Shown here: positions 37,563-54,218 of the stretch, piece after piece
How positions within the stretch are numbered: position 1 is the stretch's first letter
How the letters are laid out: the number at the start of each line of letters is the position of its first letter
Source: an uncultured Gammaproteobacteria bacterium
Lineage (GTDB): Bacteria > Patescibacteriota > Patescibacteriia > UBA1558 > GWA2-36-10
Assembly: GCA_964633905.1 (NCBI GenBank)
Contig: CAZWIT010000002.1
Coordinates: 128,833 to 192,832, forward strand
DNA length: 64,000 bases
Direction: 5' to 3'
Notes under the pieces: model-generated
The model's database searches: none
What the model was told of the DNA's origin: nothing
Seen by the model: only the letters and a program-made list of their open reading frames with translations
Translations under genes and position numbers: made by a program

Positions 37563-37587
37563 AGGTAGCAAAATATGTTATAATAAA

Positions 37588-37642
37588 CCCTGTTAAATGC
37601 CACGCAGTGGCAGTCCCGTTAAGGCGGGACTATTTAACAGGG
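37588..37642 (+). ncRNA. Candidate cis-regulatory structured RNA (three-way junction) in the 5' leader of the chemosensory/pilus operon
   Basis: An 11-bp closing helix (CCCTGTTAAAT/ATTTAACAGGG) encloses two hairpins (GCCACgcaGTGGC and GTCCCGttaaggCGGGAC). It lies between a terminator and the gene start at 37678. A TATAAT sits at 37579-37584. Confidence 0.35.
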
Positions 37643-37677
37643 TAAAAGGGTTATAAAAAGCAAAAACAAAAATTAAA

Positions 37678-38820
37678 GTGAAGTTAGTAGAAACTAAAAT
37701 TTATTTAAAATTTATTGTTTGGTTTATTGGTGTGGCTTTGCTGCCCATGGTGCTATTATTGCTATCTTTTTATTTAGCGGGCCAAGATGGGGTTAGCCCA
37801 TTTTTATCTAATTTACCGACTATTATTTGGATTGGAATTTTCTCTTCTTTGGCTTTAGTTTTATTATTGTCACTACTAGCGACTCGTTATTTATCTAGGA
37901 TAATAACTTCACCAGTACAACGTTCGGTTAATGAGCTTTCTCAAGTGGTAGATTTGCTCTTAAAATCTATTCAAAATTTATCTACTATTAGCCAAAGTAA
38001 TAATCAGATTTCTCAAGTTTTAACTATCACCAGCCAACAACAGCAGTTAGGCTTAAAAAATGGTGGCAAGGCTCTAGCTAGTATGGTTTCAGCTTTGAAT
38101 AAGATTAGCCAAAAAACAGAATTAGTTACTAGCGATGCTATTAAGACTGATAAGCTTGCCAAAGAAGGAGCGACTAAATCAAATAAAGCCATAGCTAGTC
38201 TTTCGGCAGTTAGAAATTTATTAACTGAACATCAAAAATTAAGTCAAGCTTTGCAGGCCTATACTAATAAAGTTGTAGATATAGCTAAAAGAGTGGCTGT
38301 GGTAGCAGATACGGCTAGATTTTTTAGCTTAAACATGTCGATTGAGGCTAATAAAACAGCTTTAAGTGAGGATTTTGTTGATTTAGTGGCACAATTACGC
38401 GATTTGAATATGGCTAGCGAAACCGCAGCTAGTAGTATTCAAAATTTATCTGAAGAAATGCGTCGTCATATTGAACAGTCTAAACAGTCGACTATTTTTG
38501 AGTGGCAAGAAACTAATAAAAGTATTGATACTGTAGTACAAACTCTTAATTTTTTTGACAAAATTATCAAAAATGTTGCCCAAATTACGGATAACATCCA
38601 AGTAATTAATCAAGAAAGTTCAAGTACCTATCAAAAGGCTGGCGATATTAATACTATGATCAAAGATTTGACTAAACAATCACAATTACTAGTTAAGCAG
38701 ACAGATGATATTACTAAAGTAATTCAAAATCAATTGGTGGTAACCAGGTCTTTAAATAAATCATCTTTGTCTTTAAATGAAGTTACAGATTCCCTAGATA
38801 ATTTAGTAGGTAGTAAATAA
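37678..38820 (+). CDS. Methyl-accepting chemotaxis protein-like transducer (PilJ-like), GTG start
   Basis: Two N-terminal TM helices with a very short loop, then a coiled-coil signalling region. VAVVADTARFFSLNMSIEANKTA aligns with the conserved MCP signalling-domain core. Confidence 0.6.
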   Translation: MKLVETKIYLKFIVWFIGVALLPMVLLLLSFYLAGQDGVSPFLSNLPTIIWIGIFSSLALVLLLSLLATRYLSRIITSPVQRSVNELSQVVDLLLKSIQNLSTISQSNNQISQVLTITSQQQQLGLKNGGKALASMVSALNKISQKTELVTSDAIKTDKLAKEGATKSNKAIASLSAVRNLLTEHQKLSQALQAYTNKVVDIAKRVAVVADTARFFSLNMSIEANKTALSEDFVDLVAQLRDLNMASETAASSIQNLSEEMRRHIEQSKQSTIFEWQETNKSIDTVVQTLNFFDKIIKNVAQITDNIQVINQESSSTYQKAGDINTMIKDLTKQSQLLVKQTDDITKVIQNQLVVTRSLNKSSLSLNEVTDSLDNLVGSK

Positions 38821-38821
38821 G

Positions 38822-39238
38822 ATGGCAAGTATTGGTAAAAAATACATTTTAATAAAGATTAACGAAGAGCAATGGGCTTGGCCGCTTGAGTCTAGTAGTC
38901 AATTTTTTAACATCGATTATATCTTACCTTTGCCTAAGACAGATAAATATATAGCTGGCCTTGCTTATCAGCATGGGCGTATTTTGACTGTGCTTAGGGC
39001 TGATAAATTAATTGGTCATGCCAAAAGTAATTTAAATATGAAGCAGGCTTTGTGGTTTGACTATCGACAAGATGCTTATGCAATATTAGTTGATGCTGGT
39101 GGCGAAATCATAACTGTTAAAAATTTTTCTAATGATCCACAAAAGAAAATCTTCAAAAAATATTTTAAACATCAAGCCAGTAGAATATATTGTTTAGAGC
39201 CAGAATTAATCATGTCAATATTAAAGATTTATGATTAG
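38822..39238 (+). CDS. CheW-like coupling protein
   Basis: 138 aa. YILIKINEEQWAWPL...YIAGLAYQHGRILTVL matches the CheW-domain pattern. Confidence 0.7.
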   Translation: MASIGKKYILIKINEEQWAWPLESSSQFFNIDYILPLPKTDKYIAGLAYQHGRILTVLRADKLIGHAKSNLNMKQALWFDYRQDAYAILVDAGGEIITVKNFSNDPQKKIFKKYFKHQASRIYCLEPELIMSILKIYD

Positions 39239-40790
39239 TAATAAATATCGAGAATTGTATATTACTAGTACTCAAGAACAGCTCAAAGAGCTAGCTGATT
39301 TATTTTTGTCTTTAGACAAGAATATGCAGAATAAAAATATTTTGGCTGATATTTTCAGATCTTTGCATTCTATGAAGGGCGCGGCCGCTACTATGGCTTA
39401 CAATAAAACGGTTGATTTTATTCATAATTTTGAGAGCATTATTCAGGCAGCGGCTACGGGTAAATTAAGTTTAAATAAAGATTTGTTAGATTTATTTATC
39501 ACTCTAGTTGATCATTTGCAAGATAATTTACATAGTATTAGCAGTCAGGATAAAGAGCGAGATTTTAGACAGGACAATGGCGATTTACAAAAAATTCTAA
39601 AACAACCTAGTGCTAAAATTATTAAGTTAAATAATTTGTCTGTTAAAAAAGAAGAAAATTCTGATCTAGTATCATCCCGACAAATTAGTGATTTGAGTTT
39701 AGCGGTCAGTAGCCTGGATCAGGTTCAAGATACTATGGATGATTTATTAGTTAGTATCATGTCGATTAAGGCACAAGCTTTAAAAAATGGTCAAGTTGAT
39801 CTTTTAGCCAGCGTCTTATCAGCTGATACTTTGGCTAATAATTTAAGAAGGCAGTTAGAACGTTTACGCGTTATTCCTTTAGCTACAGCTTTATCGACTT
39901 TGCCTTATTTAGTGCGATCGGTGGCTAAAGATGAAAATAAAAAAGTAAAGCTAGTTATTGAAGATAATAATTTATCTTTGGATAAATCAATGGTAGACGA
40001 TCTACTGGAAATTATAATTCAACTAGTCAAAAATTCAGTTGTTCATGGTATTAAAACTAAGCAAGCAAACGGTCAGATTAATGTTGTGGTCAATTTAATG
40101 TCAGATCATGTAGTGGTTAAAGTTAGCGATAATGGTCAAGGTATTGATTGGCATAAAGTAAAAATTTTGGCTATCAAAAAAAAGATAGTAAGTAGTAGTC
40201 AAGCAGCAAAACTCTCCGCCTCTCAGATTTTGAATTTATTGTTTCATGTAAATATGTCTAGTCAAAAACATCTAGACATTAATGCGGGCAGGGGAGTTGG
40301 TTTGAGTTTAGTAAAAAGTAAAGTTTTTGATTTAAATGGCACGATTCAGGTGCAGAGCGTAGTGCACAAGGGTACTACTTTTACTATGAAATTTCCTTTG
40401 CCCTTATCAATTTTTAAGAGTTTATCTTTTCAAATTGGTGATTGGGTGCTGGCGATTCCTTTATCACAAGTTGATAAAGTCGTACGTTTGCCAGAATTAA
40501 AAGATCTTTCTAAGGATAAGTTTTTTACTTATCATAAGCAAAGATTAAAATTGGTATCAATTTTAAAAATTTTGCCTTTAGAAAAATTTTCTAGTTTAGC
40601 AAAATATATCTTATATTTAAAAACGGAAGATGTTTTAAAAGCTTTGCCGATTTTCGGTAATTTAAAAGAAAGCGAGTTAGTTATGAAGTCAAGTCCTGCA
40701 ATTTTTCGTCAATTGCCGTATTTACGTGGTGTGGCAGTTTCTTCGGCGGGCAGGCCAGTGTTAATAATAGATGTTAATAAATTGAACTAA
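39231..40790 (+). CDS. CheA-like histidine kinase (ChpA-like)
   Basis: N-terminal HPt (LHSMKGAAATM), HATPase_c (DNGQGID, GRGVGLSLV) and a C-terminal CheW-like domain. Confidence 0.85.
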   Translation: MISNKYRELYITSTQEQLKELADLFLSLDKNMQNKNILADIFRSLHSMKGAAATMAYNKTVDFIHNFESIIQAAATGKLSLNKDLLDLFITLVDHLQDNLHSISSQDKERDFRQDNGDLQKILKQPSAKIIKLNNLSVKKEENSDLVSSRQISDLSLAVSSLDQVQDTMDDLLVSIMSIKAQALKNGQVDLLASVLSADTLANNLRRQLERLRVIPLATALSTLPYLVRSVAKDENKKVKLVIEDNNLSLDKSMVDDLLEIIIQLVKNSVVHGIKTKQANGQINVVVNLMSDHVVVKVSDNGQGIDWHKVKILAIKKKIVSSSQAAKLSASQILNLLFHVNMSSQKHLDINAGRGVGLSLVKSKVFDLNGTIQVQSVVHKGTTFTMKFPLPLSIFKSLSFQIGDWVLAIPLSQVDKVVRLPELKDLSKDKFFTYHKQRLKLVSILKILPLEKFSSLAKYILYLKTEDVLKALPIFGNLKESELVMKSSPAIFRQLPYLRGVAVSSAGRPVLIIDVNKLN

Positions 40791-40791
40791 T

Positions 40792-41211
40792 ATGGAAAAT
40801 AAGTTAGGGAAAATTTTGTTTGTTGATGATGATAATTTTTTACGCAAAGTTTATCAGTCAGAATTAAGTGAGCGTAATTATGAGGTAGTGTTAGCGGCTG
40901 ATGGTTTAGAGGGTTTAGAAAAGGCACAACTCGAAGATCCAGATTTGATTATTTTAGATATGATTATGCCTAAGAAAAATGGTTTCGAAGTCTTGACTGA
41001 ATTACAACGTAACCCCAAGACCCGTAGCATACCAGTGATTATTTTATCTAACTTGGGTCAGGAAGATGATAAAAAGAAAGGCATTGATTTGGGAGCAGTG
41101 GATTATTTAAAAAAGGATAATATGACTTTAGATTTATTGGTGGAAAAAATTAGTCAATATTTGAATTCTAAAACACATAGTAAACAAGCTAAAAATAATC
41201 AAGTAGTTTAA
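40792..41211 (+). CDS. CheY-like single-domain response regulator (PilG/PilH-like)
   Basis: ILFVDDD...DLIILDMIMPKKNG receiver-domain motifs. 139 aa, no output domain. Confidence 0.85.
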   Translation: MENKLGKILFVDDDNFLRKVYQSELSERNYEVVLAADGLEGLEKAQLEDPDLIILDMIMPKKNGFEVLTELQRNPKTRSIPVIILSNLGQEDDKKKGIDLGAVDYLKKDNMTLDLLVEKISQYLNSKTHSKQAKNNQVV

Positions 41212-41222
41212 TAATAAATAAG

Positions 41223-42908
41223 ATGGCGGCTTTATCGGAAGAAAAAATTTATCAAATTATTAGTAAAATCGGTTTAGTAAAACAGGATGTTTTGGACATG
41301 TCCGTCAAGACTGCCCAAGAGAAAAAAATTGATTTAGCAACTTTTTTGATTGAACAGGATTTACTTAAGCCGCAAGAGATTGGTCAGTTGGTTGCTAATA
41401 ATTTACATATTAAATATGCAAATCTGGCTAAAGAAAATATCAAGCCAGAAGTCCTGACACTATTGCCAGAGATTGTGGCGCGTAAGCAAAAAGTAGTTAT
41501 TTTTTCTCGTGATGTTGAGGGTACAAAAGTAGCCATGAGCGATCCTTTTGATTATCCGATGATCAAGGCCTTAGAAAAAAAATTAGGTGATAAAGTAATA
41601 CCATATTATTCTACAGATTATGAAATTACTAATGCTTTTCGACTTTATCGTCAAACTATTCAAAAAGAATATGTTAGTAATATTCAAAAAAATGCTATCA
41701 AAGCCCAGGGTGCTACCAAAGAGGATGTTTCTATTATTCGCTTAGTTGATGATTTATTAAGTTACGGTTTTATTAATCACGCTTCTGATGTTCATATCGA
41801 ACCAACGGAAAAAGAAGTAATAGTACGTTTTAGAATAGATGGCATTTTGTATGATGTTTTGAATTTTCCAAAAAGTATTTTGGAAATGATTGTCACTAGG
41901 ATTAAAATTTTAGCAAAACTTAGGACTGATGAAAGTCGTTCAGCTCAAGATGGTAAAATAATGACAGAAGTCGAAGGGGCACGCGTTGATATTAGGGTTT
42001 CAATTGTGCCTATTGTTAATGGTGAAAAAATAGTAATGCGTCTTTTGTCTTCACAGGGTAAGCAATTTAGTCTTGAAGATTTGGGCATGAGTGAACATGA
42101 TTTAACAATAGTTAATGAAGCAGCAGGTCGTCCTTATGGCATGATACTTTCTACTGGTCCTACTGGTTCTGGTAAAACAACTTCTCTATATGCCTTGATT
42201 AAAATTTTAAATCATAGAGATGTAAATATTTGTACGATTGAAGATCCAGTAGAATATAGTTTAGATGGCGTTAATCAGATCCAAGTCAATCCACAAACCA
42301 ATCTAACTTTTGCGGCTGGCTTACGTTCACTACTGCGTCAAGATCCTGATATTATTATGGTTGGAGAAATTCGTGATAATGAAACAGCTGGTATTGCTAT
42401 TAATGCCGCTATGACTGGGCATTTGGTTTTATCTACTTTGCATACCAATGATGCAGCTACTTCTTTACCACGTTTGATTGATATGCATATCGAGCCTTTT
42501 TTGGTAGCCTCAACTGTAAATATTATTATTGGTCAACGTTTGGTGCGTAAGATTTGTATGAAATGTATTTTTAGTTATACCTTGACGCCCAAAGAGTTAG
42601 AAGATTTGAAAAAAGAAATTAATATTGATAAATATTTGAATACCCAAGCTATACCAGAAGTTAGATTATATAAAGGTAAGGGCTGTGAGCATTGTAATCA
42701 TACTGGTTATGCAGGGCGTATTGGTATTTTTGAAGTTTTGCAAATGCAAGATAATATCAAAGAATTAATTGTGAGTAGATCTGATTCTGATCAAATTGCC
42801 AAACAAGCGCGAGCTAACGGTATGATCACCATGCTTGAAGATGGTTTTATTAAGTCAGTAGCAGGTAAAACTACTATTGAAGAAGTATTTAGAGTAACCA
42901 AACAATAA
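41223..42908 (+). CDS. pilB: Type IV pilus assembly ATPase PilB/GspE family
   Basis: N-terminal T2SE_N domain, Walker A GPTGSGKTT, Asp/His boxes, and a tetracysteine motif (CMKC...CEHC). Confidence 0.9.
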   Translation: MAALSEEKIYQIISKIGLVKQDVLDMSVKTAQEKKIDLATFLIEQDLLKPQEIGQLVANNLHIKYANLAKENIKPEVLTLLPEIVARKQKVVIFSRDVEGTKVAMSDPFDYPMIKALEKKLGDKVIPYYSTDYEITNAFRLYRQTIQKEYVSNIQKNAIKAQGATKEDVSIIRLVDDLLSYGFINHASDVHIEPTEKEVIVRFRIDGILYDVLNFPKSILEMIVTRIKILAKLRTDESRSAQDGKIMTEVEGARVDIRVSIVPIVNGEKIVMRLLSSQGKQFSLEDLGMSEHDLTIVNEAAGRPYGMILSTGPTGSGKTTSLYALIKILNHRDVNICTIEDPVEYSLDGVNQIQVNPQTNLTFAAGLRSLLRQDPDIIMVGEIRDNETAGIAINAAMTGHLVLSTLHTNDAATSLPRLIDMHIEPFLVASTVNIIIGQRLVRKICMKCIFSYTLTPKELEDLKKEINIDKYLNTQAIPEVRLYKGKGCEHCNHTGYAGRIGIFEVLQMQDNIKELIVSRSDSDQIAKQARANGMITMLEDGFIKSVAGKTTIEEVFRVTKQ

Positions 42909-42909
42909 T

Positions 42910-44124
42910 ATGATTTTTGTTTATCAGCTCACTGATAATAAAGGTAAAATTACCAAAGGGCGTCTAGAGGCAGCTAATATTGCCGAAGCTCGTAATCGTT
43001 TAGCCTTGCAAGACGGAACGATTGTTTCTTTAGAGCAATTTGTGGCCAAAAAAAGCTCATTAGCCCTATCCAAACAAATGGCCATTGGCAACATGCGCTT
43101 ATTAGATCGGATTATGTTTGCTAAACATTTGGCAGTCATGATTCGTTCTGGTATGTCTATAGATGCAGCTTTTGAAGTGCTAGCTGATAATCCTTCCGCT
43201 TTAGTTGCTAGCAGGATGAAAGGTATTCTAGAAGAAATTAGACGGGGGCACTCTTTAGCTGATGCCTTAAAAAAATATCCCAAAGATTTTGATAATTTAT
43301 TTATCAATATGGTAGCAGTGGGCGAGTCGAGTGGCACTTTATCCAAAAATTTAGAGCTGCTGGCTATGCAACAGCACAAGACTTATGATTTGCGTAATAA
43401 AATTAAAGCAGCTTCTATTTACCCAAGCGTAATTATAGTTGGTGTTATTTTTTTGATAGCTATTGTCTCTAAATTTGTGTTGCCAAGATTAACGGGATTT
43501 TTTACTGCCCTTGGTACTGATTTGCCTTTGTCGACTAAGATTATGATGGCGGTGGCTGGTTTTTTTGTAAATAGTTGGGGAATAGTAGTTGGAATTATTG
43601 CTTTAATTTTTGTGGGCATTATTATTATGTCTCGTTATTATGTAACCCGCCTTTGGTTGCATTATACTTTACTTAAAATACCATTGGTCGGTAAAATCAA
43701 TAGCCACGTTAATTTAGCTTTGTTTTGCCGGACTACGGCTTCACTTTTGACTAGCGGTATACCGATTGATCAGGCTCTTAATATAGTTAGTAATACTTTG
43801 ACCAACACTGTTTATAGGGAGCAGGTGGTTATTGTTTATCATAGTGTCTTAAAAGGAAATTCTTTAGCTGATGCTATGGCTAATAAAAAATATTTTCCAA
43901 CTATGTTACACCGTATGACTAAGGTAGGAGAAAATTCAGGAAACTTGAGTGAAGTTCTAAATTATTTAGCAGAGTTTTATGAGGAAGATGTTGATAATGC
44001 AACTAAGAACTTTTCCAATGTTTTAGAGCCGGCCCTATTGGTGGCCATTGGTTTAACAGTTGGTTTTGCGGCTATTTCTATTATTCAACCAATATTCAAA
44101 TTAATCAGCGTTACTGGAGCTTAA
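42910..44124 (+). CDS. pilC: Type IV pilus inner-membrane platform protein PilC/GspF family
   Basis: Two T2SSF repeats and 3 TM segments. Directly follows pilB. Confidence 0.85.
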   Translation: MIFVYQLTDNKGKITKGRLEAANIAEARNRLALQDGTIVSLEQFVAKKSSLALSKQMAIGNMRLLDRIMFAKHLAVMIRSGMSIDAAFEVLADNPSALVASRMKGILEEIRRGHSLADALKKYPKDFDNLFINMVAVGESSGTLSKNLELLAMQQHKTYDLRNKIKAASIYPSVIIVGVIFLIAIVSKFVLPRLTGFFTALGTDLPLSTKIMMAVAGFFVNSWGIVVGIIALIFVGIIIMSRYYVTRLWLHYTLLKIPLVGKINSHVNLALFCRTTASLLTSGIPIDQALNIVSNTLTNTVYREQVVIVYHSVLKGNSLADAMANKKYFPTMLHRMTKVGENSGNLSEVLNYLAEFYEEDVDNATKNFSNVLEPALLVAIGLTVGFAAISIIQPIFKLISVTGA

Positions 44125-44156
44125 GGAATAAGTTAATTTTTAAAATAAAATTTACA

Positions 44157-45272
44157 GTGAGCAGTATTTTAAAAACAATAAAAAATTTAAAACATAATAA
44201 TTTTAATATTTCTCTAAAGGGTTTTACTTTGGTAGAAATTTTAATAGTAGTTTCAGTATTAATTGTGATTTCTGCTTCGGGCGTGGCGATTTTTTCTAGC
44301 CGTACTACCCAAGTTAGTCTAGATGCTAGCTCTAAAGAAGTGATAGAGATAATTTCCCAAGCACGTAATTATGCTGTTACTGGTTATTTTGGCGATGCTT
44401 GGGGTATTAGAATTTTAGACGATAGTAGTGCTTGCGTTGATAGTGGTGATTGCGTGGTGATGTTTAAGGGTGAGTCATACTTGAGCCGTGACATTGCCTA
44501 TGATCGTAGCGTTCAGCTTGATAAGGGGGTTTATATTGATGCTAGTTCTGCCAATGAGTTTTATTTTAAACCAGTAGCTGGCTGGCTAAGTACTACTACT
44601 GGCGCTTTGGCTCAGCAGCAACTTACTTTAAAAAGTAATGATGGTGATAGTGAAACCATTGCTATTGCCGCTAGTGGTATTTCTTATTATTTTTATTGTG
44701 GCATTGATGAAGTTTTTGATATAGATGGTAAATCTTATGAAACTATTCAGATCGGTGATCAATGTTGGATGAAAGAAAATTTAAATACAGGAGTCATGTT
44801 AGCTAGCGCTGCTACTAATCCTAGTGATAATGATATAGTTGAAAAATGGTGTAATGCTGATTCGGAGGCAAATTGTGCTAGTACAGGTGGTCTCTACAGT
44901 TGGGATGAATTAATGGGTTATATGATGTTGGGTTCATCTTGGCAAAATAGGGGGATTTGTCCTTATGGTTGGCATGTACCAACAGAAGCTGAGCTTGATA
45001 TTTTGACTTCAGCTTATCCGCCAGCTTCCAATGGTACAGCTTTAAAAATCGGTGGTATTTCTGGATTTGATTTGTTGCCAGCTAATGAAATGAACACTGA
45101 TACCAATACTTATGATGATGCAGATTTGAGCGTTTTGTGGACTTCTAGTGAAAATATTGCTTTTACTAGCGAGGCTTATATTCAATACGTAGATACGCCA
45201 AGTGCCAGCATGAATAAAACTACCAATGATAAGGATTGGGGATTTTCAGTAAGGTGTTTACAGAATGATTAA
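44157..45272 (+). CDS. Prepilin-type (class III signal peptide) protein fused to a Fibrobacter-succinogenes-major-paralogous (FISUMP, TIGR02145-like) domain
   Basis: Leader ...SLKG|FTLVEILIVV (Glu at +5). The C-terminal ~170 aa match the FISUMP pattern (DIDGKSYETIQIGDQCWMKENL...GICPYGWHVPTEAELDIL...GFSVRCLQND). Confidence 0.7.
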   Translation: MSSILKTIKNLKHNNFNISLKGFTLVEILIVVSVLIVISASGVAIFSSRTTQVSLDASSKEVIEIISQARNYAVTGYFGDAWGIRILDDSSACVDSGDCVVMFKGESYLSRDIAYDRSVQLDKGVYIDASSANEFYFKPVAGWLSTTTGALAQQQLTLKSNDGDSETIAIAASGISYYFYCGIDEVFDIDGKSYETIQIGDQCWMKENLNTGVMLASAATNPSDNDIVEKWCNADSEANCASTGGLYSWDELMGYMMLGSSWQNRGICPYGWHVPTEAELDILTSAYPPASNGTALKIGGISGFDLLPANEMNTDTNTYDDADLSVLWTSSENIAFTSEAYIQYVDTPSASMNKTTNDKDWGFSVRCLQND

Positions 45273-45293
45273 TTTTATTTTTTAAAAATAGAT

Positions 45294-48200
45294 TTGATTT
45301 TAGGGTATATGTTTAATAAAAAATCACATTATAAAATTAAAAAAAGAGGCAATGGTTTTTCTTTGGTGGAATTAGTAGTGGCTCTTGGGATTTTTGCTAT
45401 TGTATCTAGTGGTGTGATTTTTGTGGTGATTAATTCTTATCGTACTTATTATGGATCAGGTGACAGGCAGGTAGTAGTCCAATTTGCTCAAGAAGGCTTA
45501 GAAGCTGTCAAAAGTATCCGTGATAATAGTTGGCAGGGTATAGTAGCAGTCGCTGATGATAATGATCATGGAGTAATTAAAGTTAATGGCTTATGGCAGT
45601 TTAGTGGCACTAATAATACTTTAGGTGCTTTAACTAGGACCATTGTGATTAGTAATGTTAGTCGTGATGCTAGTGGTAATATCGATGCTGGTGTTACTTA
45701 TGATCCTAATACTAAAAAAGTAATAGTGACAGTTTCGGGATCTGGTATTTCTAATTATGTTTTAGTTAGCTTTATTACGAATTGGTCTCATCGTTATTGG
45801 GAGCAGACTGATTGGTCAGGAGTTGGTACTAGTGAATTTTGGAACAGTGCACTTAAAGCTTCCTCATCCTATTCTAATATTAGTACTGCTACACCCGGTG
45901 CTTTGACTTTGGCCTTATCGGCTGGTGGTACGCCTGGTAGCTATGGCGATTGGGGCGATGTTTATCCTTTGGCCACTACCACTTATTTTACTAATCAAAT
46001 TCACGGCATGGCTTTATCACCTGATCAAAGAACTTTGTATACCACTGGCAATGATACGGCTCAAAGTTTTAGGGCTTATGATGTTTCTCAAGCAAGAGCT
46101 GGTATTATCAAAGAATTATGGAGTATAAAATATAATACTGACGTGCTTTTGGTTAACGCAGCTACAGTAACAGTGCATCCTAATGGACGCTATGTTTATG
46201 TTGGTTGTTATGCTGCTACCGGTGTTACTGGTAGGTTAATTTTAATTATAGATACAGTGACTAGGCAGTATACGTTTTCTACTGGTGGTACGGCCGGCAG
46301 TTCAACTATGTATATAAATGATATTGTGGTTGATGCGGACTCCAATTATTTATATGCCTTGGGTCGTAATTTTAGAATTTTTCCTTTTCAAATTACTAAT
46401 GATGGAGCTACGCTAACTTTAGTGGGGAATAGTGCTGGCCAAATTATGGCAGGTGGCGCTCTTAATCGAGGTGTGATAGCAAATGGTTGGTTATATATAG
46501 TAACTTCAGATGGTCCTAAATCATTTCAAAAAATAAATATTTCTAATCCAGCTGCTTTGACTACCACAACTGGTGGCGGCTATGTTTTTGCTAACCCCAA
46601 TGGAGCTAGGCCTAGATATAATCTTAAATATATAGAAACAGTGGCTGATCAGCCTCGTTTTCTGGTGACTAATTATTCTGGTTCGTATGAGGTAGAAATT
46701 ATAGAAGATGATGGGACGTCAGCTACTACTATTGGTAATTTAGGTTTAACTAATAGTCTTTATTTTGATATAGCTGATGGTGGTTTAGATGCTAGAACTT
46801 ATTGGCTGTATAATTATTATGGTGATTTACAAGAAATATATATCAATACGAGTGGCGTGCCGACTATTACTGGATCAGTTTGCAATGGCCGAGCTTGTAA
46901 GTATGGAAATTATTATCAGGATGTAGTTAGTAGTAGTAGTTTTTGGGCTGATAATATGGTTTACAGTAGCGTTTTAGGTGGTTTGATATTATTAGAATAT
47001 CAAGGTGCGACACCAGCTACTTATAATATGTACTTTGTTCCTAAAACTGAAACCAGGGCTAACGGCGCTACTTATTCTTATCGGCGGGCAATTACAATTG
47101 ATCATACTAAAGTATCTACTGAAGATCAAAGTTCTTTTCCAGTGCTCATTTCTGGAACCTATAGTTATTTAAAAACAACTGCTAATGGTGGTAATACCCA
47201 GAGTGATTATGGTTATGATATTATTTTTACCTCAGATATTGACGGCAATACGATACTTGATCATGAGATCGAAAGCTATTCTTCTAGTACGGGGGCTTTA
47301 ACTGCTTGGGTCAGAATTCCGACGCTATCATATACTGCGGACACTACTATTTATATGTTTTATGGGAATAACACCATTAGCACTTCACAAGAGAGAGCAA
47401 ATAGTGTTTGGGATGGTAATTTTAAGTTTGTTAGTCACATGGCTGGCAATGGTACGGACTCGGTGCGTAATGATTCTACTTCCGATAATAATTCTTTTTA
47501 TAAGTATTCAGGTGACCCTAGTACTTTTGATGTAGCGGTTTCAGCGAGTTCTGATGATGCCCAAGAGTTAGTTTCTAATGGCACTGTTACTACCAATGCA
47601 GATCCTTTGCATATGTCTTATAACGGTGGCACTTATTATACTGGTTTACGTTTTCAAAATGTGCAAGTGCCACAGGGATCTACAATTATTAATGCTTATT
47701 TAGAATTTCAAGCAGGTACACAATCAGGGGTTAATGGTGATGCTATTAATAATGTTATAGCCGCTGAAGCTACAGATGACGCAGCTACTTTTGCCGCTAC
47801 TAACTATAATATTTCCTCAAGATCAACCACTACTAGTTTTGTGACTTGGAGTTGGGCAGCAGCTTGGACAGCTGGCACTCTTTATCGTACTAATGATATT
47901 AGTCCAGTTATTAGAGAAGTTATTAACCGGCCTGGTTGGGTTAGCGGCAATGACATGGCTTTTAGGATAGCGCCTGATCCAACACAAACTTCTAAAAAGG
48001 TTGCAAAATCATATGACAATGCTACTTGGACCAGTACCACTAGTCCGCGTTTATATATTAATTATGCTTCTAGTACTAGTGGTCAAATAAATAGTGGTGA
48101 TTATTTTGATAACTATGGAGATAAACTATATGCTTTTGCTAATTATAAATCATTATGGCAAAACACTTCTGATTTTACTGCTGAATTTTGGGTTAAATAT

Positions 48201-48992
48201 GCTGGTGGCATGTCAGCATCTAATTACGCTTGCATTTTATATAAAGGCAACGGTGATGCTGGTGTGCAAGAAGGTTGGTATATCCGTTTTTTGGGTAGCA
48301 CCTCTAAATTAACTTTTCATGCTGGTAACAGCGGAAAAAATTTACAAGGCGTAACCATGACCAATGCCTTAAGCGCTGGTACTTGGACTCATATTGCCAT
48401 GGTAGTAGATCGAGATGTTGGTTATCAGTGGTATCGTAATGGTGTTGCAGAAGCAAGCTATGCTACCGACACTAGCGCTTATACGCTGGGAACTTCCACG
48501 TCCTTAGGTATTAGTTGGGATTGGTCGCCTAGTGATCCTAGTATGTCTTTTCTTGGTAATATAGATGAGATTAGAATCTCTCATACCAAGAGATCAACGT
48601 CTTGGTTAGTAACTTCTTATAATTCCCAAAATGATCCTAGTAGTTTTTATAGTATTAGTGATGCAACTACGGTAGCTGGTTATGCGAGTCCGGGTGTTTT
48701 ATATTCTTCTATTATTGATTTGGGAGCAAGCGATCAAACTCTTGCCAGCATTAGTGTTGAACAGGACGTACCAAGTGGTTGTAGTATTGTTGTTACCTTA
48801 GAAGCTTCTGATCTTAGTAGTTTTTCCTCTCTTACTAGCGCTGATTTTAGCGATAGTGCCAATTTTTTTACTAGCAGTACGCCTAGTAGTTTAGATAATA
48901 AGCGCTATTTACGTTATAAAACAACTTTAACTAATTGTAATAGTGGTTCTTCTGCTCCAAGCTTATATTCATTACGTTTAAATTATCGATAA
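45294..48992 (+). CDS. Giant prepilin-type protein (1232 aa) with a C-terminal concanavalin-A-like/LamG lectin domain
   Basis: N-terminus ...KKRGNG|FSLVELVVALGIFAIV. A LamG_3-like domain lies near the C-terminus (FTAEFWVKY...WTHIAMVVDRD...LGNIDEIRISHTKRSTSW). The true start may be the downstream Met (MFNKK...). Confidence 0.7.
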   Translation: MILGYMFNKKSHYKIKKRGNGFSLVELVVALGIFAIVSSGVIFVVINSYRTYYGSGDRQVVVQFAQEGLEAVKSIRDNSWQGIVAVADDNDHGVIKVNGLWQFSGTNNTLGALTRTIVISNVSRDASGNIDAGVTYDPNTKKVIVTVSGSGISNYVLVSFITNWSHRYWEQTDWSGVGTSEFWNSALKASSSYSNISTATPGALTLALSAGGTPGSYGDWGDVYPLATTTYFTNQIHGMALSPDQRTLYTTGNDTAQSFRAYDVSQARAGIIKELWSIKYNTDVLLVNAATVTVHPNGRYVYVGCYAATGVTGRLILIIDTVTRQYTFSTGGTAGSSTMYINDIVVDADSNYLYALGRNFRIFPFQITNDGATLTLVGNSAGQIMAGGALNRGVIANGWLYIVTSDGPKSFQKINISNPAALTTTTGGGYVFANPNGARPRYNLKYIETVADQPRFLVTNYSGSYEVEIIEDDGTSATTIGNLGLTNSLYFDIADGGLDARTYWLYNYYGDLQEIYINTSGVPTITGSVCNGRACKYGNYYQDVVSSSSFWADNMVYSSVLGGLILLEYQGATPATYNMYFVPKTETRANGATYSYRRAITIDHTKVSTEDQSSFPVLISGTYSYLKTTANGGNTQSDYGYDIIFTSDIDGNTILDHEIESYSSSTGALTAWVRIPTLSYTADTTIYMFYGNNTISTSQERANSVWDGNFKFVSHMAGNGTDSVRNDSTSDNNSFYKYSGDPSTFDVAVSASSDDAQELVSNGTVTTNADPLHMSYNGGTYYTGLRFQNVQVPQGSTIINAYLEFQAGTQSGVNGDAINNVIAAEATDDAATFAATNYNISSRSTTTSFVTWSWAAAWTAGTLYRTNDISPVIREVINRPGWVSGNDMAFRIAPDPTQTSKKVAKSYDNATWTSTTSPRLYINYASSTSGQINSGDYFDNYGDKLYAFANYKSLWQNTSDFTAEFWVKYAGGMSASNYACILYKGNGDAGVQEGWYIRFLGSTSKLTFHAGNSGKNLQGVTMTNALSAGTWTHIAMVVDRDVGYQWYRNGVAEASYATDTSAYTLGTSTSLGISWDWSPSDPSMSFLGNIDEIRISHTKRSTSWLVTSYNSQNDPSSFYSISDATTVAGYASPGVLYSSIIDLGASDQTLASISVEQDVPSGCSIVVTLEASDLSSFSSLTSADFSDSANFFTSSTPSSLDNKRYLRYKTTLTNCNSGSSAPSLYSLRLNYR

Positions 48993-50269
48993 TGACAAAA
49001 AAAATAAAACAAAAATCAGGTTTTACCTTACTTGAAACTATTATTTATTTAGCGATTGTTGGCATTTTACTTTCTGCTATTATTGATTTTAGTATTACTT
49101 TGGGAAATTCTTCTAGTAAAATGTCAGCCAACATTGATGCTTCTCGTAATCGCCGAGCGGCTTTAAGTAGTATTAATTATTTAGTGCGCAATGCTGATGG
49201 TCTATGGAAAGATGTTTATAATGATTGTTCAAATTTTAGCTCTAGTCCCCAAATTTTAGCTTTATATTTTAATAATGATGATTATCTGCCTGGTCCTTGC
49301 GTTGAAGATGGTGGGGGAGTAAAAATTAGTATTGATGAAGGTCGCCTAAAAATGACTTGTTACCCTAACGCTGGCTATAATAGTTCTTATAATACTTGTG
49401 CTAGTAGTGCTGGTAATTTTTATTGGTTAAGCGGGCAAGAAGTTTCTATTGCCAATAGTGCTTTAACTTTTTCTACTTCAACCGCTACTTCAACAGCCAA
49501 TGGTTTTACTAGCGTTACTACTTATCTCAATGTTTCTACTATTAGTAATCAGCAAACAAGCCTAAAGGCAAATTCAGCAGCGACCAGTACAGTGGCTATC
49601 CGTAATGAACAGCCGAATGGTTTAATTGCTTTTTATAAATTTGACGATGGTTCTAGCAATGCGGCTGTTGATAGTGTGGATGGCACAAGTTTGAGCTGCG
49701 CTTTAAACCCACCCAGCTCAGTGAGTAATTTAGTAGCAGGTAGTGCTAAGGCTTTTGATTTTAATAGCTCAGAATCAGATTATTGTTCGATCGATAATCC
49801 AGAAAAATTTAATTTAGGGCAGTCTTTTACTATTTCTACTTGGATAAAAATGGATAGCCCAACTGTAGCCGAACATGCTATTATTAATAAGCATGACTGG
49901 TCGGCAAGTCAGGGTTATTATTTGATGGTTTATCAAAATACTGGTCGGGTAATATTTAGAATTTGTGATGGCACAGCTTGTTCTAATATTTTAGATGTTG
50001 ATAGTATTTTAAGTAATGCAACTGTCTATAATATCACGGTGGTATATGATCAACCCAATAGTTTAGGTAAAATGTATATTTATCAGGCTGGGGTTGGCGG
50101 AGTGAGTACTACTACAGCTGCTTCTTGGCCTATTTTAGTTAACTCCAATCAAACTAATTATCCTCGGATCGGTAATAATTTAGATGGTACTTTGGATGAT
50201 TTGCGCATCTATAATAGAGCCTTAACAGAAACAGAAGTTTGGGCTTTGCAAAGTCAGGGTGCTAATTAA
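48992..50269 (+). CDS. Prepilin-type protein with LamG/concanavalin-A-like lectin domain
   Basis: N-terminus MTKKIKQKSG|FTLLETIIYLAIV. LamG_3-like domain (FTISTWIKM...GTLDDLRIYNRALTETEVWAL). Confidence 0.75.
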   Translation: MTKKIKQKSGFTLLETIIYLAIVGILLSAIIDFSITLGNSSSKMSANIDASRNRRAALSSINYLVRNADGLWKDVYNDCSNFSSSPQILALYFNNDDYLPGPCVEDGGGVKISIDEGRLKMTCYPNAGYNSSYNTCASSAGNFYWLSGQEVSIANSALTFSTSTATSTANGFTSVTTYLNVSTISNQQTSLKANSAATSTVAIRNEQPNGLIAFYKFDDGSSNAAVDSVDGTSLSCALNPPSSVSNLVAGSAKAFDFNSSESDYCSIDNPEKFNLGQSFTISTWIKMDSPTVAEHAIINKHDWSASQGYYLMVYQNTGRVIFRICDGTACSNILDVDSILSNATVYNITVVYDQPNSLGKMYIYQAGVGGVSTTTAASWPILVNSNQTNYPRIGNNLDGTLDDLRIYNRALTETEVWALQSQGAN

Positions 50270-50277
50270 TTTTATTT

Positions 50278-51225
50278 ATGCAATATATTAGAAGTTATAA
50301 AAATTTATCACAACCACAAGGTTTTATTGCTTTGATTTTAGTGATTATGGTTACAGCCATAATTTTAGTATCCAATGTGATCATTAGCATGGTTAATACT
50401 TCTAATAATTTAGCTAATTATCACATGGCTGAGTCAGAGGAAGTGTCTTATAATATCGAGGCTTGTTTAGATGATGCTTATTGGCGTATCACTTCTAGCA
50501 CTAGTGTTAGCGGTTCTTTTGGTATTACTAGTGGTGATGTAGATTGTGATTATGAAATTAGTGCCACTGATAGTGGACTTAAAATTGTCACTTCTACAGC
50601 TACTACTACCTCAGCTTTGGGTAATTGGCACCGGCAAGTAATAGCACAAATCAATGTTTCTACTACCCCTATTACTATTAGTTATTATAAAGACGGTATT
50701 AATATTATGCATGTTAATACCTCAGAAGGTCCAAATTCGCCAACTGTAGCTAGTGATTCTGGTACAGGTGGTCAAACGTGGAGCGGTGGCACTTTAAATA
50801 ATATTTTTTCTGATAATAGTACTGAAGCAGAAAATACTGCTACCTGCGGCGAAACACTTTGCAGTGATTATGAAATAAAATTAATTAAAGCAGATAATAG
50901 TCTATCCTCGCAAAATAAAGCCTTAGTAGTAGCTCTTGGTACAACAGCTGATCCGGGCTACACGAGCTACGGTGGTAGTGGCCAACTTTGGGGAGAATCT
51001 TGGACGGCTAGCGATATTAATAATGCTAATTTTGGCTTAGCTATCAAATATAATGGCGATAGTCAAAGCTCTTATTTAAAAGCTAGCGGGTTTAATTTTA
51101 ATATACCAAATGGAGCAGTAATTACTGGTATTGAAGCTAACGTTGAGCATTGGCTTGAATATTTTTTTGATCATTATGAAATTCATGTTGATCATGTTAC
51201 AATAACAATTTATTATCGCATATAA
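50278..51225 (+). CDS. Pilin-like/minor pseudopilin candidate (noncanonical prepilin motif)
   Basis: N-terminus ...SQPQG|FIALILVIMVTAIIL has the hydrophobic helix but no Glu at +5. It sits among the pilin genes. Confidence 0.4.
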   Translation: MQYIRSYKNLSQPQGFIALILVIMVTAIILVSNVIISMVNTSNNLANYHMAESEEVSYNIEACLDDAYWRITSSTSVSGSFGITSGDVDCDYEISATDSGLKIVTSTATTTSALGNWHRQVIAQINVSTTPITISYYKDGINIMHVNTSEGPNSPTVASDSGTGGQTWSGGTLNNIFSDNSTEAENTATCGETLCSDYEIKLIKADNSLSSQNKALVVALGTTADPGYTSYGGSGQLWGESWTASDINNANFGLAIKYNGDSQSSYLKASGFNFNIPNGAVITGIEANVEHWLEYFFDHYEIHVDHVTITIYYRI

Positions 51226-51239
51226 TTTTAGATTAATTT

Positions 51240-53006
51240 ATGGCTAAAGACATTATTGGGATTGATATTTCCGATGCCTCAATTGAGGCAATAGTATTAA
51301 ATAAAAAGGGTGGTAATTTTATAGTAGATACTTACTCGCGTTTTCGCTTGTCTCCGGAAATCATAGTAGATGGTAAAATTATTAAACCAGACAAGTTAAA
51401 AGAAGCCTTACAGCTAGTTTTTAAAAGCGCTCAACCGCGCCTTATGGATCCAGGTAGAGTATATTTATCAGTTTCAGAAAGCCGAGCTTTTACTAAAGTT
51501 TTTAATTTTCCTAAAAATTTAAATGATAAGGAATTAAAAGAAGCTGCTATTCATAAGGCAGAGGAGATGATACCAGAGGACATGGCACAATTGTTTAGTG
51601 CTAGTCAGTTACTGCCAAATAAAAATGAACACAAAGAAGTTTTGTATGTAACCGCTGAAAAAGAGGCGGTTTTAGCTTTGACTAAAATATTTCAAGAACA
51701 AAATATAGAAGTTCTCGGTGTTACCACCGAGTCATTTAGTGCTTACTGGGGCTTAAATGAAAAATTTAAAAAAAATCAAACTTTATTATTAGATATTGGT
51801 AGTCATACCACGATTGCAGCTATTTATGATAGTTATAGTGTGCGTGATAGTATTAATATTAATATTGCCGGTTTTAATATTATTGAGGCTATGATCAAAA
51901 GATTTAATATTGACTATTTAAAGGCTGAAGAATTGATTAGGGATGTGGGTTTAACGGCGGAGCCTGGTGATGGTGAAGTAATGCTTTTGATACAGGGACA
52001 ACTACAGCCATTACTTGATGAAGTTAATCGTTTTGTAAATTATTTTCAAGAATCAAATCAGGGACATTTAGAGCAAGTAGTTTTAATTGGTGGCTTGGCG
52101 CAAATGCGCGGTATTGTAAATTATTTTGGCTCTAATCTAAATTTACCTACTTTTATCGGGGAAACTTTTTTATCTAATAGTAATTCAGAGGCAGTTGCTT
52201 TTACTAAATATATTAATGCCCTAGGTCTGGCTAGGCTTTGTTTTGAGAAAAATAATATTAATTTTTTTGATAGTATTGATAAAAAAACTTTAAAACAAGA
52301 ATTAATTAAAGATGAAAAATTAATAGCGCCTAATCCAGATGCAGAAGCAATCGAAACACCGATCGCACCACTTGGTTTAGCAAAATACAAATTATTATTC
52401 AAGAAGATTTTTGGCAGTTTATTTTTTGCATTATTTTTAATGTTGATAGGCTTAGGTGGTTCATTTATTTTTTTGCGAAAACCTTTGCAAAATTTATTTG
52501 TTAGAGAAACTAGCTTTAGTATTAATTCAGAAAAAATTAGTGTTGGTCTAAAATCTCCAGGAGGAGCGAATCAGCGCTTTGTCTATGGTCAAAATGCCTC
52601 TTTTGTTTTAAATCAAGAAAAAGACTATCCGGCCCTTTCCTATGAAGAGGTAAAAGATAAGCTGGTGGCGAATTTATCAGAAGAAGTGATAAATGAATTA
52701 AATAAAAAATATCAACAGAGCGGCTACTACATTATTCCTCAGATTATTGGTAAACAAATTATCGATATTAGTCCTAAGCAAGTAGATTTTAAAATTGGTC
52801 AGCCTGTCAAAGTGCAAGTGAGTTTTTCTTTTATAGCAATCTCCAATAATGATGTTAAACAAGTTTTAGGGCGTATTGCCAAAGCTGAAGAGCAGGCTAA
52901 AATTTTAAGTAGTGAGGTAGAACAGGCAGAATACAAACTTATTTCTTGGGATAGTGCTAATCAATCGTTTGTCTTAGAGGTTAATTTTAAGTTTAAAACT
53001 AAATAA
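51240..53006 (+). CDS. pilM: PilM-like actin-fold ATPase fused to a PilN-like bitopic domain
   Basis: N-terminus IIGIDISDASIEAIVL plus the LLDIGSHTT phosphate-binding motif (FtsA/PilM family). A TM helix (about residues 390-412) is followed by an extracytoplasmic domain. Confidence 0.65.
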   Translation: MAKDIIGIDISDASIEAIVLNKKGGNFIVDTYSRFRLSPEIIVDGKIIKPDKLKEALQLVFKSAQPRLMDPGRVYLSVSESRAFTKVFNFPKNLNDKELKEAAIHKAEEMIPEDMAQLFSASQLLPNKNEHKEVLYVTAEKEAVLALTKIFQEQNIEVLGVTTESFSAYWGLNEKFKKNQTLLLDIGSHTTIAAIYDSYSVRDSININIAGFNIIEAMIKRFNIDYLKAEELIRDVGLTAEPGDGEVMLLIQGQLQPLLDEVNRFVNYFQESNQGHLEQVVLIGGLAQMRGIVNYFGSNLNLPTFIGETFLSNSNSEAVAFTKYINALGLARLCFEKNNINFFDSIDKKTLKQELIKDEKLIAPNPDAEAIETPIAPLGLAKYKLLFKKIFGSLFFALFLMLIGLGGSFIFLRKPLQNLFVRETSFSINSEKISVGLKSPGGANQRFVYGQNASFVLNQEKDYPALSYEEVKDKLVANLSEEVINELNKKYQQSGYYIIPQIIGKQIIDISPKQVDFKIGQPVKVQVSFSFIAISNNDVKQVLGRIAKAEEQAKILSSEVEQAEYKLISWDSANQSFVLEVNFKFKTK

Positions 53007-53121
53007 TTTTTCCCTGTGGATAAGTTTAAAATTATCAATTTGTCCAAAAAATGGTATAATTAGTCTATTAAAATAAAGCAGTATTTAATAAATTTTATTT
53101 GTATAGAATAAAAATAAAAAA

Positions 53122-53625
53122 ATGAATCAAATCTTAAAGAATTCGGGATTTACTTTAATTGAATTGATTATCGTAGTGGCTATTATCGCTCTTCTTGCTT
53201 CAGCTGGTTTTGTGGCTATTAATCCAGGTAAGCGTTCGGGTGATGCTAATAATGCCAAACGTTGGGCAGATGTAACTGCTATTGCTGATGCTTATTCTGC
53301 CTATCTGGTAGATAATGGTGGCACTCATCCAACTACTACACCAACGCCAACGGCAGGTGTTACCTATTCTATTACCACTACCACTGATGCTTCTGGTAAT
53401 CTTACAGTTTGTGAAGGGGGTGCTAACGCTACGACTACTTCTCAGTATATTGATTTGGAAGCCTTAGTAAGTAATGGTTATATTGGTAAAATTCCGCTTG
53501 ATCCAGCTTATGGCGCTGGTGATGCTAGAAATACTGGTTATTATTTTTATCGTGAATCTAGTGGCACCTTGGTTATTGGTTCTTGTGATAGTTATAACAA
53601 TGAAGACATTGAATTAGTTAGATAG
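53122..53625 (+). CDS. Type IV major pilin (paralog 1)
   Basis: MNQILKNSG|FTLIELIIVVAIIALLA, canonical class III signal with Glu+5. 167 aa, Thr-rich central region, two Cys flanking a C-terminal D-region. Confidence 0.85.
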   Translation: MNQILKNSGFTLIELIIVVAIIALLASAGFVAINPGKRSGDANNAKRWADVTAIADAYSAYLVDNGGTHPTTTPTPTAGVTYSITTTTDASGNLTVCEGGANATTTSQYIDLEALVSNGYIGKIPLDPAYGAGDARNTGYYFYRESSGTLVIGSCDSYNNEDIELVR

Positions 53626-53655
53626 TATTTTATTAATAATAATTAAATATAAAAT

Positions 53656-54159
53656 ATGAAAAAAATCTTAAAAAATTCAGGCTTTACTTTAATCGAATTG
53701 ATTATCGTAGTAGCCATCATCGCTTTGCTAGCAGCTGCTAGTTTTGTGGCTATCAATCCTGGCAAACGTGTGGGTGATGCTAATAATGCCAAACGTTGGT
53801 CAGACATTACTGCTATTGCTGATGCTTATTCAGCTTATTTAGTGGATAATGGTGGTACCCATCCAACTACCACGGCTTATACAACTGGTGTTACTTATTC
53901 AATTACTAGTTCAACTCAAGGTCATGCCGAGAGGTGTGCTGCTGATACGACAAATGGTAATGCAACTACTACCTCTGCTAATGTTAACTTAGCAGCCTTG
54001 GTTACATCTGGTTATATTGGTGCCATACCATCTGATCCTGGTTATGTAGTGGCTGATACTTTTAATACTGGTTATTATCTCTATAGAGAGAGTTCTGGTA
54101 AATTAGTAATTGGTTCTTGTGATGCTTACAATTCAGTTAATATAGAAGTAGTTAGGTAG
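53656..54159 (+). CDS. Type IV major pilin (paralog 2)
   Basis: MKKILKNSG|FTLIELIIVVAIIALLA. About 95% identical to paralog 1 over the first ~75 residues. The central region is divergent and the C-terminus conserved. Confidence 0.85.
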   Translation: MKKILKNSGFTLIELIIVVAIIALLAAASFVAINPGKRVGDANNAKRWSDITAIADAYSAYLVDNGGTHPTTTAYTTGVTYSITSSTQGHAERCAADTTNGNATTTSANVNLAALVTSGYIGAIPSDPGYVVADTFNTGYYLYRESSGKLVIGSCDAYNSVNIEVVR

Positions 54160-54189: not shown

Positions 54190-54218
54190 TTGACAAAAGT
54201 TTATTAGCACTCTATAAT
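54190..54218 (+). promoter_or_regulatory. Consensus sigma-70 promoter (TTGACA-17-TATAAT) of the exporter operon
   Basis: TTGACA at 54190-54195, a 17-nt spacer, TATAAT at 54213-54218. Confidence 0.7.

Follow-up and report, generated by a model that had tools for sequence, protein, structure and literature searches.

A conserved cluster of chemosensory and type IV pilus genes in Patescibacteria: a candidate signal-controlled adhesive pilus system

What is a chemosensory kinase doing at the head of a gene cluster for a type IV pilus? The question arises from a 64,000-nucleotide (nt) stretch of DNA, analysed at its full length and called the window here, in which 13 open reading frames (ORFs) between positions 37678 and 54159 all lie co-directionally on the forward (+) strand. 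An earlier note on this DNA had read them as a unit of chemosensory (che) and pilus (pil) genes in a bacterium of the Candidate Phyla Radiation (CPR, Patescibacteria), and each of the genes that it named was found in its place. Chemosensory control of type IV pili is textbook knowledge for diderm bacteria, and the concept is known. New here are the setting (Patescibacteria and a monoderm-type pilus), the che genes heading the pilus operon, the minimal architecture and a modular evolution around a fixed pair of receiver and PilB. The gene content and its conservation support the reading of the che and pil genes as one signal-controlled adhesive-pilus unit in a CPR organism. On balance, we think that in this conserved Patescibacteria operon a minimal, adaptation-less chemosensory phosphorelay forms the promoter-proximal part and serves as the input to a type IV pilus machine of the monoderm type, and that an adhesive pilus would be controlled in this way.

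Gene order and its conservation

Domains were called with Pfam and NCBIfam. The Pfam scan covered 39 ORFs of the window, including all larger ORFs outside the cluster, and about 13 small ORFs of the ribosomal-protein operon region (1-16 kb) lay outside it. For the genome survey, one genome per GTDB species was taken, CheA was aligned and the ORFs of each locus were then labelled by BLASTP with the window proteins; three checks of gene context with precomputed Pfam labels agreed with this labelling. Within the window, the domain searches recovered the signatures of a methyl-accepting chemotaxis protein (MCP), CheW, CheA and CheY as well as those of PilB, PilC and the pilins. The genes are overlapping or tightly spaced, as the earlier note had described, with intergenic gaps of -8 to +32 nt and a sole exception of 115 nt 5' of the first major pilin gene, pilA1. 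From gene packing and conservation we infer one operon.

CheA has about 74 homologous clusters, all of 511-525 amino acids (aa) and of the same architecture, with 37-96% identity. All those with an informative source name are Patescibacteria, and canonical CheAs follow only after a large gap. Outside Patescibacteria, the nearest CheAs, at about 25-35% identity, are of the P2-containing Firmicutes type or are hybrid CheAs. The close homologues all derive from metagenome-assembled genomes (MAGs) of Patescibacteria, which agrees with the CPR organism proposed earlier, and the lineage of the operon is Parcubacteria/Komeilibacteria-like. The public titles “uncultured Gammaproteobacteria bacterium” on several third-party-annotated MAGs with this operon, e.g. 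CAZHLU010000013.1 (a 96% relative) and CAYRIU010000007.1, are probably wrong.

The arrangement of the window, type A, was found in identical order in the genomes of about 32 Patescibacteria species representatives, with CheA identities as low as 37%: Wzx and Bac_transf on the reverse strand, Wzy_C in 0-2 copies, MCP, CheW, CheA, CheY, PilB, PilC, four minor pilins, PilM and PilA. The che and pil genes were always neighbours in these genomes, which bears out their description as a unit. Because the gene order recurs in so many genomes, the cluster exceeds chance adjacency, and fortuitous adjacency was rejected as an explanation. Conservation is unequal among the proteins. Within type A, identity to the window is 65-87% for CheY and 66-81% for PilB, followed by 32-67% for MCP, 37-57% for CheA and 30-44% for CheW. 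CheY and PilB are therefore the most conserved proteins of the cluster.

Two more Patescibacteria variants came to light among PilB homologues of less than 61% identity. In type B, the MCP is 617-629 aa long, with a large N-terminal part (weak dCache-like match), and is accompanied by CheW, CheA and a CheY that ends in a zinc ribbon; its identity to the window is 26-28% for CheA, 23-25% for MCP, 60-65% for CheY and 57-60% for PilB. Type C has no MCP, CheW or CheA and keeps a 126-130-aa receiver, 51-56% identical to that of the window, directly 5' of PilB. The three types share orthologous receivers, 51-78% identical and with invariant catalytic residues, and the adjacency of receiver and PilB is invariant across types A, B and C. 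Since this pair persists while the input diverges (type B) or is absent (type C), the receiver-PilB pair is the invariant core and the MCP-CheW-CheA input is exchangeable.

The same comparison bears on the proposal that the two gene sets are co-transcribed yet functionally separate, with phosphorylated CheY (CheY~P) in control of another process, such as cell division or the synthesis of envelope glycans, and the linkage due to genome compaction alone. The cluster always lies beside a glycan-biosynthesis cluster, and the compact genomes of CPR bacteria contain long runs of co-directional genes. However, the glycan genes on the flank are variable, with 0-2 copies of Wzy_C, and types B and C lack them, while the receiver-PilB adjacency is invariant, and the two most conserved proteins of the cluster are precisely CheY and PilB. 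We regard such a separation of functions as very unlikely.

Several further features of the relatives were recorded. A low-complexity linker and a C-terminal CxxC...CxxC zinc ribbon extend CheY to 199-224 aa in L001/L027, L029-L031, L039, L081, L083 and L085; the ribbon, absent from the CheY of the window, is a possible extra docking or output element. The stand-alone receivers of type C lie at 9574-9966 in locus L082 and at 9570-9950 in locus L084. A conserved trio of genes precedes types B and C, with products of about 300-340 aa (EamA-like), about 340 aa and about 150 aa (pilin-like), and an OLD-family TOPRIM ATPase likewise lies upstream of type B/C pilus operons. In type C relatives, hrcA is directly 3' of pilA.

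The chemosensory relay and its receptor

The CheA kinase (39231-40790, + strand, 519 aa) matched Hpt, HATPase_c and CheW, all above the gathering scores, and has the architecture P1-P3-P4-P5, with neither P2 nor a receiver domain. The dimerisation domain was missed by the Pfam model. It is nevertheless present, because positions 152-515 of the CheA profile align to P3-P4-P5 of Thermotoga maritima CheA (1B3Q) and the profile matches Escherichia coli CheA (6S1K, E 5e-75). The phospho-acceptor His46 of P1 sits in an HSMKG motif. This residue and the N, G1 and G2 boxes (N268/H272/G273; D300-N-G-x-G; G353-R-G-x-G) are invariant across 16 sequences. CheY (40792-41211, + strand) is a stand-alone receiver matching Response_reg only (89 bits), in which the acidic pocket DDD12-14, D56 and K108 are invariant in 9 orthologues. 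Since it has no output domain, CheY must act via protein-protein contact. The coupling protein CheW (38822-39238, + strand) scored 28.3 bits with the Pfam CheW model, above the gathering score of 23.5.

The receptor is an MCP-type transducer of 380 aa (37678-38820, + strand) with two transmembrane (TM) segments. By itself it scored 29.6 bits with MCPsignal, below the gathering score of 34.6; of the domain calls this is the weakest. The receptor call is secured by its family, because all 19 MCP family members, orthologues of the window protein, match MCPsignal (best E 5e-15) and the family profile aligns over 281 positions to T. maritima TM1143 (2CH7, E 5e-15), nearly the whole cytoplasmic domain. 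The cytoplasmic part is a long bundle with a divergent hairpin tip, whose motif SLN.sIEA..K....F..LV.QIR.LN is conserved. The two hydrophobic segments lie at about residues 10-34 and 48-73, and the loop connecting them is short (at most 12 residues) and variable. The protein is therefore an MCP without an ectodomain, in agreement with the earlier description of a transducer with no sizeable periplasmic sensor. No HAMP domain was found in the 19 family members. The most conserved stretch is an invariant N-terminal ETKIY motif together with TM1. The window-type receptor family is tiny, with 234 matches at E<=1e-3 and 11 at E<=1e-30 among 1.84 billion representatives. NCBIfam had no specific family for the MCP, for CheW, or for two further proteins of the window described below, a 315-aa pilin-like protein and a Wzy_C protein.

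All parts of a core chemosensory pathway were found: an MCP signalling domain, a CheA with P1, P3, P4 and P5, a CheW adaptor and a single-domain CheY with its active residues. The phosphorelay gene set is complete and its catalytic residues are intact. Methylation-based adaptation, which is usual but not universal in such pathways, is not represented: among the 39 window ORFs scanned with Pfam there was no CheR, CheB, PilT or secretin, consistent with the absences listed in the earlier note, nor any PilD, and no CheR or CheB was called within 10 kb of the locus in relatives. A switch or a feedback loop is therefore favoured over adaptation-based gradient sensing.

What such a receptor would sense is the point at which a rival explanation enters. 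Because there is no ectodomain and the ETKIY motif and TM1 are the most conserved stretch, intramembrane or cytoplasmic sensing, for example of the pilin pool or of the state of the machine, is a serious alternative to the sensing of a ligand. In its full form, the conserved N-terminal region and TM hairpin of the ectodomain-less MCP would register the state of the pilus machine or of the pilin pool in the membrane, and the Che relay would tune extension, as a surface- or contact-sensing loop like that proposed for PilJ/ChpA. The missing HAMP domain, the confinement of the tiny receptor family to this operon and the lack of adaptation enzymes point in the same direction. However, the large receptor of type B, with its weak dCache-like match, argues that at least some of these systems sense external ligands, and a contact between MCP and pilin is hypothetical. 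We consider this feedback or mechanosensing loop possible, although the odds are against it.

Among the closest known systems is the Pil-Chp system of Pseudomonas aeruginosa (PilJ-PilI-ChpA-PilG/PilH-PilK-ChpB), which belongs to the type IV pilus (Tfp) class of chemosensory systems. As in the present cluster, an MCP/CheW/CheA/CheY relay serves type IV pili and not flagella (PMC11181946), and single-domain CheY-like regulators act on the extension machinery, which is proposed here. Other features differ. The present CheA has one HPt domain and no C-terminal receiver, whereas ChpA has multiple HPt-type domains and a receiver. A single CheY, here and in all relatives, stands in place of the antagonistic pair PilG/PilH. 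There is no counterpart of the CheR/CheB pair PilK/ChpB among the scanned window ORFs, and the receptor lacks a periplasmic domain. Here the che genes open the pilus operon itself, and the pilus is of the monoderm type, with no secretin, in a Patescibacterium. Neither mark of the Tfp class, that is a multi-HPt CheA with a receiver and two antagonistic CheY-like regulators, was found. By architecture the che-pil system would not belong to the Pil-Chp/Tfp class, and the earlier label “Pil-Chp-type” is apt for the presumed way of working, by analogy only.

The closest experimental precedent is Tax1 of Synechocystis (PixJ-PixI-PixL-PixG/PixH), in which only phosphorylated PixG interacts with PilB1 and PilC (PMC11181946). 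In contrast to the present regulator, a bare receiver (with a zinc ribbon in some relatives), PixG is a PATAN-REC protein whose PATAN domain makes the main contact. In addition, PixL is a hybrid kinase with a receiver, and the Tax1 genes are not embedded in a pilus assembly operon.

The pilus machine and the proposed mechanism

The cluster encodes a PilB-type extension ATPase (41223-42908, + strand; T2SSE 427 bits, with an MshEN-like N-terminal domain) and a PilC platform protein (42910-44124, + strand; two T2SSF repeats, 197 bits). PilM (51240-53006, + strand), which has an actin-like ATPase fold, matches PilM_2 over residues 1-320 (97.7 bits) and continues into a C-terminal extension comprising a linker, one TM segment (384-414) and an extracytoplasmic domain of about 175 aa made of two beta-alpha-beta-beta units. 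The earlier note had called this protein a PilM-PilN fusion. The fusion of PilM to a TM segment and an ectodomain stands. The PilN part of the label is putative: the model of the ectodomain (predicted local distance difference test score, pLDDT, 93) matched no PilN or PilO by sequence or by fold, and its resemblance to PilN is one of topology only. Two tandem major pilins of 167 aa each, 71% identical to one another, lie at 53122-53625 and 53656-54159 (+ strand), as had been proposed. Both match N_methyl; the first has the processing site G|FTLIE and a Thr/Ser-rich globular part, and residues 61-115 of the major pilins are 33% Ser/Thr. N_methyl was matched in five proteins of the cluster.

Four genes for pilin-like proteins lie ahead of PilM, like the sets that form the priming or tip complexes of other type IV filaments. 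The presence of four prepilin-type proteins, three of them with large FISUMP or LamG domains and one of 1232 aa, was likewise borne out by Pfam and NCBIfam. The first (44157-45272, + strand) has N_methyl, the class III signal G|FTLVE, a GspH/ComGD-like pilin part and a C-terminal Fib_succ_major (FISUMP) module (TIGR02145, E 3e-28). The second, the 1232-aa giant (45294-48992, + strand), has a class III signal with N_methyl, then a stretch of about 450 aa without a family match, followed by DUF2341 and Laminin_G_3. The third (48992-50269, + strand) combines N_methyl with a C-terminal Laminin_G_3 domain, which is concanavalin A (ConA)-like. These three proteins are modular minor pilins, that is pilin N-termini with grafted C-terminal modules. 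The fourth (50278-51225, + strand, 315 aa) has a class-III-like N-terminus, G|FIALI, and no Pfam or NCBIfam match; it is GspK/PilX-like in its lack of Glu5 and is kept at the same position in relatives. Taken together, the core of a monoderm-type type IV pilus is present, with an extension ATPase, a platform protein, PilM and class III pilins (G|F...E5). PilD and PilT, absent from the scanned window ORFs, could lie elsewhere in the genome.

Related filament machines share much of this core. The ATPase scored best in NCBIfam with GspE (538.8 bits, against 518.7 for PilB; both below the cut-offs), which would suit a type II secretion-like pseudopilus that exports proteins and is not a surface pilus. 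However, there is no secretin among the scanned window ORFs and no GspL, GspM or GspC, PilM is present, the pilins are two 167-aa PilA-like proteins accompanied by giant adhesin-type minor pilins, and pili have been reported on CPR cells (PMC9938205; PMC9894109). We regard such a secretion system as extremely improbable.

A second candidate is a pilus mainly for competence, in which the Che module would gate the scavenging of DNA or nucleotides and not adhesion or motility. There is a match of the PilB core to ComGA (E 2e-73) and a weak one of the first minor pilin to ComGD; comEC and dprA are common in CPR genomes, and DNA uptake has been proposed for CPR type IV pili (PMC7143001; PMC9938205). 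However, the ComGA model covers the ATPase core only (residues 178-442); far better matches, over the full length, were given by the models of PilB and GspE. The major pilins, at 167 aa, are not ComGC-sized, PilM is present and three minor pilins carry large adhesin-type modules. The scanned window ORFs included no ComEA or ComEC, and the set as a whole is not that of a Com pseudopilus. Competence as the main role is unlikely, although a competence role and an adhesion role are not mutually exclusive.

Two characterised pili suggest what the pilus of the window may do. In Streptococcus sanguinis, one minor pilin has a ConA-like lectin module by which it binds host glycans at the tip of the pilus (PMC9934059). 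That type IV pilus, with its PilA/PilB/PilC tip complex, is also of the monoderm type and has two major pilins that resemble each other, and its minor pilins carry grafted modules, there adhesive and including the ConA-like lectin, that are modelled at the tip (PMC9934059; PMC8179133). In contrast, no chemosensory genes are reported for the S. sanguinis pilus (PMC9934059; PMC8179133). The modules here are FISUMP, DUF2341 with LamG, and LamG, one of them in a pilin of 1232 aa. PilM here has a fused TM segment and ectodomain, and no PilT was found among the scanned window ORFs. Among Patescibacteria, the type IV pili of Saccharibacteria (TM7x/TM7i, Southlakia) are essential and drive the motility by which progeny find new hosts (PMC11665869; PMC9894109). 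Pilin, PilB, PilT, PilC and PilM are listed there, with no mention of chemotaxis genes or a receiver (PMC9894109), whereas the present operon adds MCP-CheW-CheA-CheY and belongs to a Parcubacteria/Komeilibacteria-like lineage.

In the mechanism that we infer from these genes, phosphotransfer, the target of CheY, the kind of signal, the glycosylation of the pilins and the role in adhesion are all predicted. The membrane-anchored MCP would assemble with CheW and the P2-less CheA, and the state of the receptor would set CheA autophosphorylation at His46. The phosphoryl group would then move from CheA to Asp56 of the single-domain CheY. CheY~P may act directly on the motor, that is on PilB, or on PilC or PilM, and thereby start or stop filament extension. 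The filament would consist of the two major pilins, probably O-glycosylated. A complex of the four minor pilins would prime and cap it, three of its members bearing the grafted FISUMP or LamG/DUF2341 modules, whose probable ligands are glycans on the surface of a host or substrate. Host attachment and DNA uptake, the roles suggested in the earlier note, and a single transcript are likewise predictions.

Several points weigh against this mechanism. The MCP of the window taken alone does not reach the Pfam threshold, and the receptor has no sensor domain that would point to a signal. The lack of CheR and CheB in the window and within 10 kb in relatives makes temporal gradient sensing with memory doubtful. 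The conservation of the N-terminal region of PilB is only suggestive of a contact with CheY. “Lectin-like” is a domain-family label (LamG, FISUMP), and O-glycosylation of the pilins is a reasonable guess from the gene neighbourhood and the Thr/Ser-rich pilins. Without PilT or PilD in the window, retraction or twitching cannot be asserted, and because no PilT was found among the scanned ORFs we do not claim twitching.

CPR genome papers state that chemotaxis genes are absent from CPR bacteria (PMC11809585; PMC7143001). A groundwater study of ultra-small MAGs counts CheY-like genes and lists “pilL”, with the operon not described (PMC9938205). We found no prior description of the che-pil operon in the full-text literature, the coverage of which is incomplete, so that an earlier mention is possible; the coupling of such a pilus to a chemosensory kinase is, as the earlier note put it, not a standard description. 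In the few Patescibacteria in culture, host finding depends on type IV pili (PMC11665869). A conserved MCP-CheW-CheA-CheY-PilB operon offers a concrete, testable signalling route to host seeking or attachment in this large and uncultivated group. It is also a compact model of Che-to-pilus signalling, with four small proteins, no adaptation enzymes in view and a bare CheY encoded beside its probable target. The persistence of the receiver-PilB pair while the input is swapped or lost across types A, B and C amounts to a natural experiment in plugging sensory modules into a motor. More tentatively, and with the chances rather against it, this lineage may use signal-directed or contact-gated pilus behaviour to find or seize hosts, the ancient receiver-PilB pair serving as a direct motor switch and the MCP sensing the membrane or pilin state, or an intracellular cue, without adaptation by methylation. 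If so, it would be the first case of chemosensory behaviour in CPR bacteria, with Che proteins recruited independently to a monoderm-type pilus.

Boundaries of the unit and neighbouring genes

The 5' boundary of the unit is a terminator-like hairpin (37529-37555, + strand; 10-bp stem with 6 GC pairs, then a T-rich tract) that closes the upstream Wzy_C gene; several relatives have a comparable hairpin and T-tract. It is followed by a predicted promoter (37556-37584, + strand) with a -35-like TTGTTT (37556-37561), a 17-nt spacer and the extended -10 TGTTATAAT (37576-37584). The predicted transcription start, about 37591, agrees with the start near 37590 expected earlier. Among the type A loci listed, TTTGTT..N..ATATGTTATAAT is kept 5' of the MCP gene, with one-base variants in L021, L031 and L032, and in the relatives examined the motif precedes the MCP gene irrespective of the gene further upstream. 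The exact sequence TATGTTATAAT occurs once in the window. As a specific operator it was rejected, related TGTTATAAT sites lying 5' of other operons at 9594 and 15929; the motif is probably the strong extended -10 promoter of this organism.

The predicted 5' untranslated region (UTR) folds into a three-way junction (37587-37643, + strand), a perfect fold with a free energy (dG) of -34.7 kcal/mol and a z score of -6.2 against shuffles. It is confined to the window and the 96% relative L004 and is absent from more distant relatives. Rfam had only chance-level matches to it and gave nothing at gathering thresholds in the whole window. Its hairpin arm CCCTGTTAAAT was considered as a dispersed repeat and rejected, as it is not repeated in the window. 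In the 115-nt gap before pilA1, a promoter-like site (53032-53060, + strand; TTATCA-17-TATAAT with TG), a consensus match only, may be an extra promoter for the major pilins.

The 3' limit of the unit is set by a separate downstream promoter (54190-54230), a perfect TTGACA-17-TATAAT interlaced with a canonical CIRCE operator. The operator, TTAGCACTC-N9-GAGTGCTAA, lies at 54204-54230, and its spacer holds the -10 box of the promoter. Because the listed GTG start at 54224 falls inside the operator, the in-frame ATG at 54230 is the likelier start, with a near-leaderless mRNA. This promoter heads the genes for HlyD, a MacB ATPase and two MacB permeases, followed by hrcA, grpE, hsp20 and dnaK (54224-63103), and the MacAB-like exporter appears to be part of the HrcA heat-shock regulon.

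Directly upstream of the unit lies a glycan-biosynthesis cluster (24425-37503) with four GT4 glycosyltransferases, a hexapeptide acyltransferase, three methyltransferases, a GT9, a Wzx flippase (32531-33772, - strand), a Bac_transf initiating transferase (33772-35136, - strand) and a Wzy_C+TPR membrane protein (35314-37503, + strand). Wzx and Bac_transf adjoin the MCP gene in almost all type A loci, with Wzy_C present in 0-2 copies. As the organism presumably lacks an outer membrane, Wzy_C could act as a polymerase or as a protein O-oligosaccharyltransferase. Judged by their position, the Wzx, Bac_transf and Wzy_C genes are possibly a pilin or surface glycosylation arm.

Elsewhere in the window, two large ORFs (1283 and 455 aa) at 18379-23701 have no Pfam match and coincide with the only stretch of raised G+C content (0.39-0.40, against about 0.30-0.35 around it). 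The regions 16038-17951 and 11397-13000 hold a gene for an extracytoplasmic function (ECF)-type sigma factor followed by one for a DUF5667 protein, likely its anti-sigma partner, and genes for Glycos_transf_4 (MraY/WecA-like) and DUF192 proteins directly downstream of the ribosomal-protein/SecY/Adk/Map operon.

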